Source: Promethearchaeota archaeon (GTDB taxonomy: Archaea; Asgardarchaeota; Lokiarchaeia; Sigyniarchaeales; SOKP01). Taken from it: DNA of 42,850 bases. Below, one piece after another: positions 14,359 to 21,779 of the stretch; the first letter of the stretch is position 1, and every line of letters begins with the position of its first letter. The translations under genes were made by a program, and so were the position numbers. Under the pieces are notes generated by a model. That model made no database searches and was not told where the DNA came from. It saw only the letters and a program-made list of their open reading frames with translations. The DNA lies in NCBI GenBank assembly GCA_013375475.1, contig JABXKD010000026.1, forward strand, positions 1-42,850. The letters are read 5' to 3'.

Positions 14359-14745
14359 TTATTGCATAGCTTTTTCATGAGCTTTAGCATTTAATGGTAA
14401 GATTGGAGCACATGCCATAAGTTTTGTAACGTCTCCTTCGACAACATATGTTCCCGCCATTGTAGCTTGTATTGGATCAGATTCGCCGGAATTAACCTTC
14501 TGGATTGTTGCATAATCTGTTTTATGTAAGATTTTTGGCGCGTCAGGTCCAGAGTATTCGCCCATCCCCCAATCCATTTTGTCTTTATCAATAAATTGCC
14601 AATAACTCATCTCTGGTTTATCTGATATTAGGTATTGAAAGACTAAAGGCGCAATGGGCTCTAATAAGGGCGCTAAATCAGGTAGCTCATTATAGGCTTT
14701 CATGAAGCGAGTTAGATACGCTTCCCATTCTTCTTTTGTTTCCAT
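14359..14745 (-). CDS. SCP2 sterol/lipid-binding domain protein
   Basis: SGESDPIQATMAGTYVVEGDVTKLM matches the SCP2 C-terminal pattern; ATG at 14745 follows a GGTGA RBS. Confidence 0.8.
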   Translation of the reverse strand: METKEEWEAYLTRFMKAYNELPDLAPLLEPIAPLVFQYLISDKPEMSYWQFIDKDKMDWGMGEYSGPDAPKILHKTDYATIQKVNSGESDPIQATMAGTYVVEGDVTKLMACAPILPLNAKAHEKAMQ

Positions 14746-14834
14746 TTTATTTTTCACCTTTTTTTTGTTTTAAATTATAGAATTTTTTAAATATATCATG
14801 TTTTTTCCTAACTTTGACTTATTCTACCTTTACT

Positions 14835-16247
14835 TTATTTTTTCAGTTCCTCTTTCCATAGTCCATATTTTTTAAGGCCTTCTCTCATATCTGGTTGAAA
14901 AGGTTCTGGTGTTCCTTCAAGGAACGCTTCAACCATATCATCATTCTCAACCATCGACGAATCTCTTTTTTTCGCTTTTTCTTCAGCAAGGGAAGATATT
15001 ACCACTTTAGCAAGGGGCTGAAATTGAGGGGGTGATAGTAGTATTAATTTGCCAAATATTTGTGCTGTCTCGCAATCCCACTTGAAAACATCCTCTCTTT
15101 TTTCTTTAGGTTTAGCAGTATCAATCCCAAATTCACGACTTGTTATTAAATCGTCAAGATAACCTTGTATTGACTCAACATATTTAGGAGCTTGTTCCTT
15201 ATCAAGAAAGACTACTTTTTCAGCCCAGTTTTCGCAGTAATTACACTCATCGCACATCGAAATACAGTCTTGTTTCTTGAAGAAGTCAATAAATCCATCC
15301 AGTTTTGTATTATCTATTATCAATTTCGATTTAGATTCTTTATCGACAGTTTGCTGAAATTTTGCTTGAGGATCATTTTCAATTCCTATTGACATCGTAA
15401 AACCCTGAATGATATCAACAAGATTACCCTCATATTTTCGTGAAGAAAAAGCTTTAACTGCTCGCGTGATCCATTCAGTTGACATTCGACGCCCCGCAAT
15501 TTTAAAAGTGTCAATTCCTATTTCTTCATAATGTGAGAGATCTTCGGGGCGAATCCACCGAGCTTTGATTACTTCAGTCTTATCTGAAAACTTAATAGCA
15601 CTGCAATTGAGAATGCATGAATCTATATAGTTACCGCCTAGTTGGTGATCCCCTTGAGACGAATGCCCTAAAAGATTATAATGGTAATATCTAAAAGGAC
15701 ATTGATACAGACATCCATCAGTTAATAAAGGAACAATTTTACACTTCACAGCTTTTTGCATTTTTTCCAATGTTTTAAAGTCTCTATTAATCATTATACT
15801 GGGAGTTATTTCGTCAGCACCCAATGATTCATAGAATTTAGCTCGATTGACACTATTAACATGAGATATTGTAGACACTCGAATTTTCAAATTAGGGAAC
15901 TGTTCTTTTACAATTTGAATTAAGAATGGAATGGTTACAATAACATAATCAGATCCTATATCGCTGATCCACTGAAGATGTTCTATTAATTTTCTATGGA
16001 AAGTAGGATCATATTCCATATTGCTCATACAAGGCGCATTTAGTAAATATGAGAATTTCATTTTTTTACTATGCACTTGTTTAATATACTCAGCAATTTC
16101 TTCTTCCGTTACCTCTTTCAATAAGAACGAAGGCCTGCCATGACCTACAATAGAAAAATTACCAACACCATAAAAATCTCTTACTGGATATTTGGCCATT
16201 TCCTCTATAAGATTAAAGTCCCAATTTGTTGCTACAGTTAACTGAAT
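14835..16247 (-). CDS. U32 'peptidase' family Fe-S protein (UbiU/UbiV/TrhP superfamily) with C-terminal DUF2621/PCP_red-like domain
   Basis: GHGR, FSYLLNAPC, VST, INRDF, GCLYQCPFR, WIRPEDL, FKIAGR, CxxxCxxCxxC; the frame stays open upstream of ATG 16199 to ATT 16247 (IQLTVATNWD). Confidence 0.88.
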   Translation of the reverse strand: MQLTVATNWDFNLIEEMAKYPVRDFYGVGNFSIVGHGRPSFLLKEVTEEEIAEYIKQVHSKKMKFSYLLNAPCMSNMEYDPTFHRKLIEHLQWISDIGSDYVIVTIPFLIQIVKEQFPNLKIRVSTISHVNSVNRAKFYESLGADEITPSIMINRDFKTLEKMQKAVKCKIVPLLTDGCLYQCPFRYYHYNLLGHSSQGDHQLGGNYIDSCILNCSAIKFSDKTEVIKARWIRPEDLSHYEEIGIDTFKIAGRRMSTEWITRAVKAFSSRKYEGNLVDIIQGFTMSIGIENDPQAKFQQTVDKESKSKLIIDNTKLDGFIDFFKKQDCISMCDECNYCENWAEKVVFLDKEQAPKYVESIQGYLDDLITSREFGIDTAKPKEKREDVFKWDCETAQIFGKLILLSPPQFQPLAKVVISSLAEEKAKKRDSSMVENDDMVEAFLEGTPEPFQPDMREGLKKYGLWKEELKK

Positions 16248-20400: not shown

Positions 20401-20411
20401 AATTTTCACAT

Positions 20412-21779
20412 TTATTCGAGTTCTTCATGAGTATGATCATCCTCATGCCAGCAAAAAGGAAGCGCTGCAAGGAAATCTCCAGTTTCATTTTCAGCATGGA
20501 CTCTACAACCACCACCACACATATCAAGGTGATGACAAGTTGAACATTTACCTTTAACCTTTCGATCCCTGATTGCCTTAAACATTTCAGATTCCATTAT
20601 CTCTTCAAAATCTTGTTCATATACATTACCCAAGGTTAAATTAGAAGGATAATCGCAAGGGAAAAAATCACCATTAACATCGATGCCCGAGACTGAACGG
20701 CATGCTTGACAACCTACACCCCATTCTAACGCTGTTCGTTCCGTGTCATTGCGGGGGCATTCCATGAAAGGGACCATATCATATGTGTATACTTTATTAA
20801 GAAATGATCCTTCACCTTTTCTAATTGCATCAACCACATGTTTAAATTTAAAATCATAAAATTGACGAAATTTTTCATATGACAGTCCTATATCGTTCCA
20901 ATTTATCTCAGCAGTTCGTTGTTTGATAACAGCTCTAAAATATGGGATTGCACCAAACGAATCTAATTTTTTCTTAATTTCTTCTAATTCGTCAAAATTC
21001 TCTTCTTGAACTGTAGCTGTACAAATGACTAGATGACCGTATTTTAATGCTAATTTTATAGCCTTTTCAGCGGCTTCAAGTGCTTTTGGAACACCTCTAA
21101 TTTTCGCAGCTCTCTCAGGATAAACACTATCGTAGCTGATAAATACGTGATGCATTTTGGCATCTGCGCATACCCTCGCGAGTTCCTCGTCAAAGAGCAT
21201 GCCATTTGTTGAAATAGCTTGATAATATCCCTTTTCTCCACAGTATTTTATTAATTCCTTGATATCTTTTCGAAGAGTAGGCTCTCCCCCAAACCAAATA
21301 TAACACCCTCGCCGACCACGCTTTCGCAATGTCTGTTCTACATTTTCAATAATTTGAATCCATTGTTCTGTTGAGAATTCTGGACGGTTACCCATTAGTT
21401 CTGCAGCACAGTGAATACATTTTTGGTTACATCTATCACTAAGATACATAGTAAAGTGATAGACTCCAGGAGCCCACGCACCGCCGACTTCATCCCAAGT
21501 ACGTGCGAATTCTTGTCGGATTGCCGATAGTTTGATGTAGCGGTCGGTATCGATACCAATAGTTTTTAAATCTGCCACAACCGTAGGTTGAAAGGCATCG
21601 GGAGTGATTTCAAATAGAGCGGATAGCAAATCATCTTTACTTACAAATCCTGAATTCCTTAGCGTTGCGGTTTTTTCAGCAGCTTCACGCAACATTGGTT
21701 TTACTGAAGCGCGAAACCCTTCAGGAGTTAAATCGGTAATTTGTGTATATAAATCTTCAATCTCTTTATTCCATTCCAT
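20412..21779 (-). CDS. Radical SAM/SPASM protein with N-terminal DUF2621/PCP_red-like domain (paralog A)
   Basis: CNQKCIHC, GGEP, GCQAC...GDFFPC...CSTCHHLDMCGGGCR...FC; ATG at 21779 after GGTGA. Confidence 0.93.
   Translation of the reverse strand: MEWNKEIEDLYTQITDLTPEGFRASVKPMLREAAEKTATLRNSGFVSKDDLLSALFEITPDAFQPTVVADLKTIGIDTDRYIKLSAIRQEFARTWDEVGGAWAPGVYHFTMYLSDRCNQKCIHCAAELMGNRPEFSTEQWIQIIENVEQTLRKRGRRGCYIWFGGEPTLRKDIKELIKYCGEKGYYQAISTNGMLFDEELARVCADAKMHHVFISYDSVYPERAAKIRGVPKALEAAEKAIKLALKYGHLVICTATVQEENFDELEEIKKKLDSFGAIPYFRAVIKQRTAEINWNDIGLSYEKFRQFYDFKFKHVVDAIRKGEGSFLNKVYTYDMVPFMECPRNDTERTALEWGVGCQACRSVSGIDVNGDFFPCDYPSNLTLGNVYEQDFEEIMESEMFKAIRDRKVKGKCSTCHHLDMCGGGCRVHAENETGDFLAALPFCWHEDDHTHEELE

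Follow-up and report, generated by a model that had tools for sequence, protein, structure and literature searches.

A conserved Asgard archaeal operon joins radical SAM enzymes, an ABBA prenyltransferase and a U32-family protein to a putative SCP2-like lipid carrier

We analyzed a 42,850-nt stretch of contig JABXKD010000026.1 from a Promethearchaeota archaeon (the window; all coordinates refer to it) and identified six open reading frames (ORFs) in a row on its minus strand, at 14359-21788. They encode two paralogous radical S-adenosylmethionine (SAM) enzymes with SPASM domains (SPASM_A and SPASM_B), a B12-binding radical SAM enzyme, an aromatic prenyltransferase of the ABBA type, a divergent U32-family protein and a small SCP2-like protein (Table 1). 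Four of these proteins carry copies of a domain of about 85 residues. The upstream sequence places the start of SPASM_A at the ATG at 21779, with AAAGGTGAAAAAT upstream; this is also the end coordinate given by an earlier annotation made from the DNA letters alone (the sequence-only reading). The likely starts of the other five genes were also chosen by reading the upstream sequences, and are the higher coordinates in Table 1. The intergenic gaps with these likeliest starts are 11, 47, 36, 125 and 89 bp. Purine motifs resembling ribosome-binding sites (GGTGA, AGGT or GAGG) lie 5-10 nt before five of the six starts, and the motif before SPASM_B is weak. The sequence-only reading had described six co-oriented genes with these domains, gaps of about 11-90 bp, ribosome-binding motifs and a T-tract after the last gene. 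ORF listing and Pfam matches agree with the gene content, and the T-tract is present; four of the gaps lie in the quoted range and one is longer, and the ribosome-binding motifs hold up for five starts. The best explanation for this layout is that the six genes would form one transcription unit. Rfam and tRNA scans of the window gave no matches. A Kyte-Doolittle scan shows no transmembrane-like segment in any of the six proteins, in keeping with a need for a lipid carrier that is soluble.

Table 1. Genes, domain copies and other features of the operon and of its upstream neighbours in the window.
Feature	Position	Strand	Basis or remark
SPASM_A, radical SAM/SPASM enzyme with N-terminal PCP_red/DUF2621-like domain	20412..21779	-	Pfam; GGTGA before ATG
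SPASM_B, paralogous radical SAM/SPASM enzyme, also with N-terminal shared domain	18997..20400	-	Pfam
Class B (B12-binding) radical SAM enzyme, lacking the shared domain	17534..18949	-	Pfam, NCBIfam
ABBA (Orf2/NphB-type) aromatic prenyltransferase	16325..17497	-	Pfam, PDB sequences, AlphaFold2, Foldseek
Divergent U32-family Fe-S protein (predicted), shared domain C-terminal	14835..16199	-	Pfam, cysteine alignment
SCP2-like small protein, putative carrier of a lipophilic substrate	14359..14745	-	Pfam (20.6 bits), orthologues; alternative GTG start at 14757
Shared helical domain of about 85 residues, SPASM_A copy	21525..21779	-	sequence comparison, AlphaFold2
Shared domain, SPASM_B copy	20146..20400	-	sequence comparison
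Shared domain, prenyltransferase copy	17249..17497	-	sequence comparison
Shared domain, U32-like protein copy (C-terminal)	14838..15092	-	sequence comparison
T-rich tract directly 3' of the SCP2 stop codon	about 14337..14353	-	read from sequence; likely archaeal terminator
orf215, membrane protein outside known families, possible system member	21870..22517	-	kept upstream neighbour, 16/28 sources
Second B12-radical SAM enzyme, closest to TIGR04190 (Ta0216 type), possible system member	22718..24229	-	16/28 sources

The gene order is conserved in other genomes. When species-representative genomes were scanned with the prenyltransferase, 27 loci were obtained, every one of them in Asgard (Promethearchaeota) metagenome-assembled genomes (MAGs). 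The window proteins were then run against these loci by tblastn. Both SPASM genes are directly upstream of the prenyltransferase gene in all 21 loci with enough upstream sequence; the remaining six end at contig ends. In 18 of the 21, the gene for the B12 enzyme separates SPASM_B from the prenyltransferase; L014, L015 and L027 lack it. SCP2 was detected in 25 of the 27 loci, and a U32 orthologue with at least 66% identity in 20. SPASM_B forms its own orthologue group across loci (68-92% identity). We also clustered the ORFs of the 27 loci plus the window (28 sources), and found clusters for the prenyltransferase in 27, the U32-like protein in 25, SPASM proteins in 22 and the B12 enzyme in 21. 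Additional genes are present in some loci, including a small and large pair of U32 paralogues between the prenyltransferase and SCP2 genes (12/28 sources) and extra SCP2 genes. Recurrence of this gene order in 27 other Asgard loci indicates that the block is a real unit, beyond chance, and the co-location in other genomes on which the sequence-only reading depended is therefore established.

Two genes just upstream, for a Ta0216-type B12-radical SAM enzyme and for orf215, are each found in 16 of the 28 sources, always immediately upstream and co-oriented. Thus, the functional block probably extends to 24229. These likely members at 21870-24229 were missed by the sequence-only reading. The product of orf215 has no Pfam family and is encoded between the Ta0216-type gene and SPASM_A. 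An ESM Atlas search with it gave only matches under a usable score, and its predicted structure is poor.

The prenyltransferase matches PF11468 over model positions 2-283 of 287 (9e-51, 173.4 bits versus a cut-off of 22 bits). Its nearest solved sequences are FamD1, AmbP3 and AmbP1 (1.6e-33 to 2.5e-33), EpzP (2e-31), NphB (1.8e-18) and CloQ (3.6e-9). The ABBA fold is a ten-stranded antiparallel beta-barrel of alpha-beta-beta-alpha repeats, as described in PMC7839719. An AlphaFold2 model built with 31 homologues (predicted local distance difference test score, pLDDT, of 89) has ten strands between residues 134 and 368. Foldseek gives target-normalised TM-scores of 0.79-0.91 to AmbP3, FamD1, AmbP1, EpzP, NphB and CloQ, with 0.91 to AmbP3. 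The strand count and the AmbP3 score thus answer the concern, raised with the sequence-only reading, that 16325-17497 might not fold as a prenyltransferase barrel. The shared domain takes up residues 1-83, and the barrel residues of about 94-378. Invariant in the family are R146, R151, K208, N259, Y261, R314, K365 and Y370, and the motifs around R151-Y, K208-x-W, N259-x-Y, R314 and K365...Y370 are the same in FamD1 in our alignment. These basic and tyrosine residues would be compatible with diphosphate binding.

The U32-like protein matches the first quarter of PF01136 above the cut-off (1.1e-13, 51.5 bits versus 22.4 bits), and the structure of a Methanopyrus U32 protein (PDB 5d88) aligns to residues 18-181 (5.5e-7). 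Its sole NCBIfam match is to TrhP, at 34.5 bits versus a cut-off of 534 bits. Two canonical U32 genes are encoded elsewhere in the genome. All 33 of the homologues compared keep cysteines C57, C153, C163, C167 and C199 unchanged, together with a second motif, C312-X3-C316-X2-C319-X2-C322. The cysteine sets that bind [4Fe-4S] clusters in U32 proteins are given as CX6CX15CX3/4C or, in UbiV, as CXnCX12CX3C, and the UbiV cluster is described as essential for O2-independent hydroxylation (PMC6747719). The spacing C57...C153-X9-C163-X3-C167 resembles the UbiV motif but differs from it, and binding of a [4Fe-4S] cluster is predicted. The U32 family is divided into twelve subfamilies, most of them uncharacterised, and is rarer in archaea (PMC10990095).

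The window's SCP2-like protein scores 20.6 bits against PF02036, for which the cut-off is 21.3 bits. Its relatives score higher: a protein with 62% identity at locus L042 reaches 22.3 bits, over the cut-off, paralogous SCP2 domains at locus L001 (31-48% identity) reach 23.3, 25.1 and 26.3 bits, and the SCP2 domain of protein P0135 reaches 66.3 bits. At L001, an orthologue of the window's SCP2 protein (80% identity) is fused in frame to a large U32 paralogue, giving a U32-domain-SCP2 protein of 683 residues; another radical SAM/SPASM protein there has a C-terminal SCP2 domain. Frames of 683-698 residues with the shared domain are present in at least eight other genomes. The partnership of U32 and SCP2 is thus evident both from the adjacent SCP2 gene in 25 of 27 loci and from in-frame fusions. 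Fusions of ubiT and ubiU genes have also been reported (PMC6747719).

Both SPASM proteins have PF04055 and PF13186 matches over the cut-off, and the CX3CX2C motif and the SPASM cysteines are seen in the translations. For each, the best five NCBIfam matches are NirJ1, AhbD, AhbC, NirJ2 and NirJ, over the full catalytic length, with scores of 107-137 bits that are far below the equivalog cut-offs of 500-650. Solved relatives are remote. Matches to tetraether synthase (Tes) are weak (NF045702 at 3e-15 and 1.8e-16; PDB 7tol at 2.1e-6); the Tes scores are about 56-60 bits, compared with about 135 bits for AhbD and NirJ. The B12 enzyme has PF02310 (58.7 bits) and PF04055 (88 bits), the architecture of class B radical SAM enzymes.

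The domain carried by four of the six proteins was missed by the sequence-only reading. It is N-terminal in SPASM_A, SPASM_B and the prenyltransferase and C-terminal in the U32-like protein, with 29-46% identity between copies and invariant positions W, P, A-E, R, D, P..F.P and L-K. All four copies match Pfam DUF2621 weakly (positions ~55-138; 3e-4 to 0.04, below cut-off). A profile built from 14 diverse copies identified only the four operon proteins in the window's own 3.9-Mb genome, and 290 proteins at E<=1e-3 among 1.84 billion representative proteins. Lengths were surveyed for 147 of the 290. Sequences of no more than 125 residues make up 78 of the 147. Many of these begin with M, with lengths concentrated at 80-105 residues, and thus resemble stand-alone domain proteins. 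Ten stand-alone relatives were scanned; three are over the cut-off for DUF2621 (PF11084) and six have weak matches to PCP_red (PF08369).

Fusions of the domain, seen in longer proteins, include U32 with the domain and two SCP2 domains (P0225), the domain with SCP2 (P0152), the domain with the prenyltransferase (P0153, P0185, P0207), LuxC with the domain and radical SAM/SPASM in one protein (P0190), and the 1104-residue multi-domain P0135 (SCP2, an SCP2-like Alkyl_sulf_C domain, and PCP_red and DUF2621 matches). Matches in the repeat-rich proteins P0139 and P0199 were taken as spurious. At L042, from a different Asgard family (genome G128), the domain is at the C-terminus of the prenyltransferase rather than the N-terminus. 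This placement at either end, depending on lineage, indicates a mobile module that is not part of the catalytic fold. The AlphaFold2 model of the domain (pLDDT 92) has four to five helices. A Foldseek search of this model against PDB gave no E value below 0.3 (best 0.33), with 2l09, presumably a PCP_red-family protein, as the top match. No significant match was found in PDB sequences with the domain profile, and no usable match in the ESM Atlas. The modularity of the domain and its fusions to SCP2 suggest that it is a docking or assembly handle to a common partner, either the SCP2-bound substrate or the other enzymes (a metabolon). A predicted complex of the SCP2 protein and the domain scored 0.01 against a mark of 0.32, which speaks neither for nor against binding.

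The operon is patchily distributed. Among 400 genomes of the phylum, the prenyltransferase was found in 32, including the window's own genome (28/134 in its family, 9/41 in its genus, and 13/90 among high-quality genomes). The shared domain was found in 47 of the 400, including all 32 with the prenyltransferase. Two of the 15 genomes with the domain and no prenyltransferase were examined, both on long contigs (329 and 436 kb). G207 (100% complete) encodes Ta0216-orf215-SPASM_A-SCP2-U32, so orf215 is also kept in a variant lacking the prenyltransferase, and G174 (98% complete) encodes SCP2-U32-B12. From these layouts, the invariant kernel is SCP2 plus the domain-bearing U32 protein. Three modules are optional: the B12 enzyme, the second SPASM enzyme and the prenyltransferase. 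Nearly all homologues retrieved from a large protein database come from Asgard MAGs; their only labels are 'aromatic prenyltransferase', 'U32 family peptidase' or hypothetical. A distant prenyltransferase (42% identity) carries the label Thermoplasmata, and one U32 homologue is labelled Deferrimicrobium, possibly due to mis-binning.

Sequence matches with stop codons were also seen. Prenyltransferase matches with an in-frame TAG or TAA occur in two genomes of another Asgard family (G123:C69:1907-2824 and G124:C17:557-1483), and several domain matches at the C-termini of U32 proteins contain single stops. These may reflect gene boundaries, frameshifts or recoding of stop codons; recoding in Asgard lineages is reportedly the subject of PMC9723677. 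In some versions of the cluster, the genes are followed, at L001 17792-20355 and L042 12816-13439, by those for a FAD-binding oxidase and a CCG-domain Fe-S protein, a GlcD/GlcF-like pair, or for a PIG-L de-N-acetylase. Lineage-specific extra steps are a possible role for these trailing genes.

We conclude with considerable confidence that this is a genuine, conserved, Asgard-centred operon whose soluble enzymes have as their substrate a small, lipophilic molecule that SCP2 handles, and that the shared domain is a module specific to the system. What the operon makes is a more tentative matter. From the observed gene content, folds, cysteine motifs, synteny, fusions and distribution we infer a substrate, a product, each chemical step and a role for the shared domain. 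The account we favour, though with less than even confidence, is an O2-independent, soluble, SCP2-assisted route whose product would be an aromatic lipid bearing prenyl, hydroxyl and sometimes methyl groups; in function, the route would be an analogue of the UbiT/UbiU/UbiV branch in the synthesis of ubiquinone. The SCP2-like protein would hold the lipophilic intermediates while the shared domain brings the four enzymes to their common partner. The ABBA prenyltransferase may alkylate an electron-rich ring, with a prenyl diphosphate as donor, after which the U32 Fe-S protein would hydroxylate the ring in the absence of O2. To our knowledge, U32 proteins are the sole type of oxygen-independent aromatic hydroxylase. 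The probable oxygen donor would be prephenate, as proposed for UbiU and UbiV (PMC10990095). Chorismate synthase and chorismate mutase are encoded in the window's genome, so prephenate is available. Carbon methylation by the B12-radical SAM enzyme could follow, as an optional step in some lineages, and the two AhbD/NirJ-like SPASM enzymes could then perform radical chemistry on a side chain (oxidative decarboxylation, side-chain removal or C-C bond formation).

Several observations weigh against this route. The parallel with UbiT, UbiU and UbiV drawn by the sequence-only reading is supported by the cysteine spacing, the SCP2-U32 fusions and the prephenate supply. It is weakened by the match to PF01136, which covers only model positions 3-66 of 233, and by the NCBIfam search, in which the UbiU and UbiV equivalog models gave no match. 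The best NCBIfam match of the B12 enzyme is TIGR04072, 'lipid biosynthesis B12-binding/radical SAM protein' (271 bits versus a cut-off of 360), followed by BzaD. The intact-looking G207 and G174 variants indicate that prenylation is not obligatory, and the system's substrate may be present irrespective of this operon. Genes of lipid or glycolipid type flank the operon; they encode a CDP-alcohol phosphatidyltransferase, family 2 glycosyltransferases (GT2), a sulfotransferase and further B12-radical SAM enzymes. ALAD (PF00490) was not found in the window's genome, which is scored 100% complete; hence there would be no de novo tetrapyrrole synthesis, and no haem for cytochromes. An NrfD-type quinol-handling subunit was not found in this genome either. 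An essential respiratory cofactor or quinone is made less likely by the patchy distribution (32/400 genomes; 9/41 in the genus) and by the lack of any obvious quinone-using enzyme. A better fit would be a specialised membrane component, or else a redox or signalling lipid with an accessory role. The specific products named in the sequence-only reading (a quinone, a methanophenazine-like carrier or a meroterpenoid) stay predictions, made less secure by the prenyltransferase-free variants, the patchiness, the missing NrfD and tetrapyrrole synthesis, and the lipid-gene neighbourhood.

The dispensable prenyltransferase and the neighbouring lipid genes are better explained by the main rival, tailoring of isoprenoid membrane lipids (archaeol, glycerol dialkyl glycerol tetraethers or unsaturated precursors), which we nevertheless consider rather unlikely. 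SCP2 would take the lipid out of the membrane, the radical SAM enzymes would cross-link, cyclise, methylate or desaturate its tails, and the U32 protein would oxidise an sp2 carbon of an unsaturated chain. A constant SCP2 and U32 kernel with varying radical SAM partners is consistent with such a role, as is the Ta0216-type gene upstream in 16 of 28 sources. The window encodes at least five B12-radical SAM proteins (17534-18949, 22718-24229, 31022-32476, 34837-36309 and 36513-37985), in addition to the phosphatidyltransferase, glycosyltransferases and sulfotransferase. The TIGR04072 match and the weak tetraether synthase matches point the same way, and B12-radical SAM enzymes are established modifiers of archaeal lipid tails: according to the available text of bioRxiv 10.1101/2025.10.20.683597, Grs, Gmm, Cgm and Ted cyclise, methylate and desaturate tetraether lipids, and Ted homologues are present in Asgard archaea. 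Lipid tailoring accounts less well for the aromatic-type prenyltransferase and the U32 protein. The nearest solved prenyltransferases all use aromatic acceptors, as far as PMC7839719 describes them, and the U32 proteins to which PMC10990095 assigns a role act on aromatic or heteroaromatic rings. Also, the SPASM enzymes are far closer to AhbD and NirJ than to Tes, and all six proteins are predicted to be soluble.

The remaining alternatives are less probable. The resemblance to AhbD, AhbC and NirJ, which are haem and haem-d1 side-chain enzymes and supply the five best NCBIfam matches of the SPASM proteins, could indicate similar side-chain chemistry on a tetrapyrrole or other large cofactor. 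The shared domain has PCP_red/DUF2621 among its relatives, and protochlorophyllide reductase subunit B has a known PCP_red-like domain. We dropped this idea as the leading interpretation because ALAD is absent from a genome scored as complete; the SPASM scores of about 135 bits against cut-offs of 500-650, and the SCP2 fusions, which point to lipid, make it very doubtful indeed. In pathways for peptides that are ribosomally synthesised and post-translationally modified (RiPPs), one recognition domain common to several tailoring enzymes is typical. The shared domain might thus recognise a leader while the SPASM maturases cross-link the peptide, the B12 enzyme C-methylates it and the ABBA enzyme prenylates it. 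Below cut-off, the SPASM proteins match MftC, PqqE, WgkB, PapB and others (and PDB 5v1q and PqqE), and the B12 enzyme weakly matches RiPP C-methyltransferases. However, gaps of at most 125 bp leave no space for a precursor gene inside the operon (the flanks had no systematic short-ORF search), and a protease, transporter or PqqD-like RiPP recognition element was not found with Pfam. The shared domain is all-helical and repeatedly fused to SCP2 lipid-binding domains, and the prenyltransferase falls in PF11468, so we view a RiPP cluster as highly improbable. We also consider it quite improbable that the genes serve to break down or detoxify hydrophobic compounds from sediment, whether aromatic or steroid-like, by a system in which SCP2 would solubilise the compound and the U32 and radical SAM enzymes would functionalise it anaerobically. 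The patchy, accessory-like distribution, the modular make-up around the SCP2 and U32 kernel and the source of the DNA (marine and other sediment metagenomes, with at least 95% of the sampled words in three runs of a single study) are compatible with this. Prenylation and methylation are anabolic decorations, however, and genes for ring cleavage, CoA ligase/beta-oxidation or transport are not kept in the block across the 27 loci and 28 sources; the LuxE-like gene neighbours the operon in just 8 of the 28.

Other genes in the window may provide context. Two further radical SAM genes (6950-8086 and 27149-28180) were identified, and the radical SAM genes are also interleaved with genes for a hexapeptide acyltransferase and an alpha/beta hydrolase. 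Judged by its gene content, the 43-kb window looks like a lipid or envelope-modification island. With no ALAD, yet at least five B12-radical SAM genes, the organism presumably relies on corrinoid salvage. Five UbiA-family genes and one UbiD-family gene are present in the genome. The LuxE-like acyl-protein synthetase (11553-12854), an adenylating enzyme encoded in the flank, is a divergent neighbour in 8 of 28 sources. A LuxC/LuxE link, suggested by this neighbour and by the P0190 fusion, was rejected, as the window's genome lacks LuxC. Paralogous zinc-ribbon membrane proteins, with a proline-rich linker and three to four transmembrane-like segments, flank the operon on both sides (12951-13535, 13607-14167, 24378-24884, and the C-terminus of 8114-8875), and their homologues adjoin it in 8 of 28 sources.

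Eukaryotes have no closer known relatives than the Asgard archaea, whose membrane chemistry and bioenergetics have mostly been deduced from genome sequences. A U32 protein and the SCP2 protein that partners it are here combined with an ABBA prenyltransferase and three radical SAM enzymes. This points to a lipophilic metabolite not yet described and to enzyme chemistry that is new, and the shared adaptor-like domain and SCP2 fusions provide a testable model for how soluble enzymes could handle a greasy intermediate. It is possible, but unlikely, that some Asgard archaea make a new quinone-like redox lipid without oxygen, using a soluble assembly line with a docking domain and an SCP2 carrier. 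If so, the picture of Asgard energy metabolism would change, in contrast to the view that these archaea lack membrane electron carriers, and the docking domain and carrier would represent a carrier-protein logic for lipid cofactors not described elsewhere. If the product is instead a modified membrane lipid, it may be a new sediment biomarker. Under either reading, the operon offers concrete targets for heterologous expression.

The component families are all known already; their combination would represent a new, SCP2-assisted and U32-based anaerobic pathway. Neither the gene combination nor this use of the shared domain was found described in full-text literature searches. PCP_red and DUF2621 domains are small and helical, like the shared domain, and we did not find in print a case in which such a module is repeated on four enzymes of one operon. 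AhbD, AhbC and NirJ are the best-scoring named families for the SPASM proteins and have the SPASM auxiliary-cluster domain in common with them. Unlike these enzymes, the window proteins have an additional N-terminal adaptor-like domain and occur in a genome without a tetrapyrrole pathway. The archaeal lipid enzymes Tes, Grs, Gmm, Cgm and Ted are members of the superfamilies in which the window enzymes fall, radical SAM/SPASM-like and class B B12-radical SAM, and also act on lipophilic substrates in archaea. The similarity is weak, however, and the available text of bioRxiv 10.1101/2025.10.20.683597 does not report them working with SCP2, U32 or ABBA proteins.

The window's prenyltransferase has the Pfam family and ten-stranded barrel of AmbP1, AmbP3, FamD1, EpzP, NphB and CloQ, at only 17-30% identity to the solved enzymes. 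Unlike them, it has an extra 83-residue helical domain (N-terminal here, C-terminal in other lineages), and its host is an archaeon. The usual context of ABBA enzymes is a bacterial secondary-metabolite cluster, whereas here it is an operon with SCP2, U32 and radical SAM genes. In the proteobacterial UbiT/UbiU/UbiV system, as in the window operon, a U32-family protein is combined with a lipid-binding protein of SCP2 type (in the window, a predicted Fe-S protein and an SCP2-like protein). SCP2-U32 gene fusions are known for both, in the latter case among relatives of the operon. An anoxic function would also be common to the two. The window's U32 protein differs from UbiU and UbiV in its extra CX3CX2CX2C motif and PCP_red-like domain, and is encoded singly rather than as a U/V pair, with an extra pair in 12 of 28 sources. 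Finally, the Ubi system uses a UbiA-type prenyltransferase, whereas the window system is archaeal and combines an ABBA prenyltransferase with three radical SAM enzymes.

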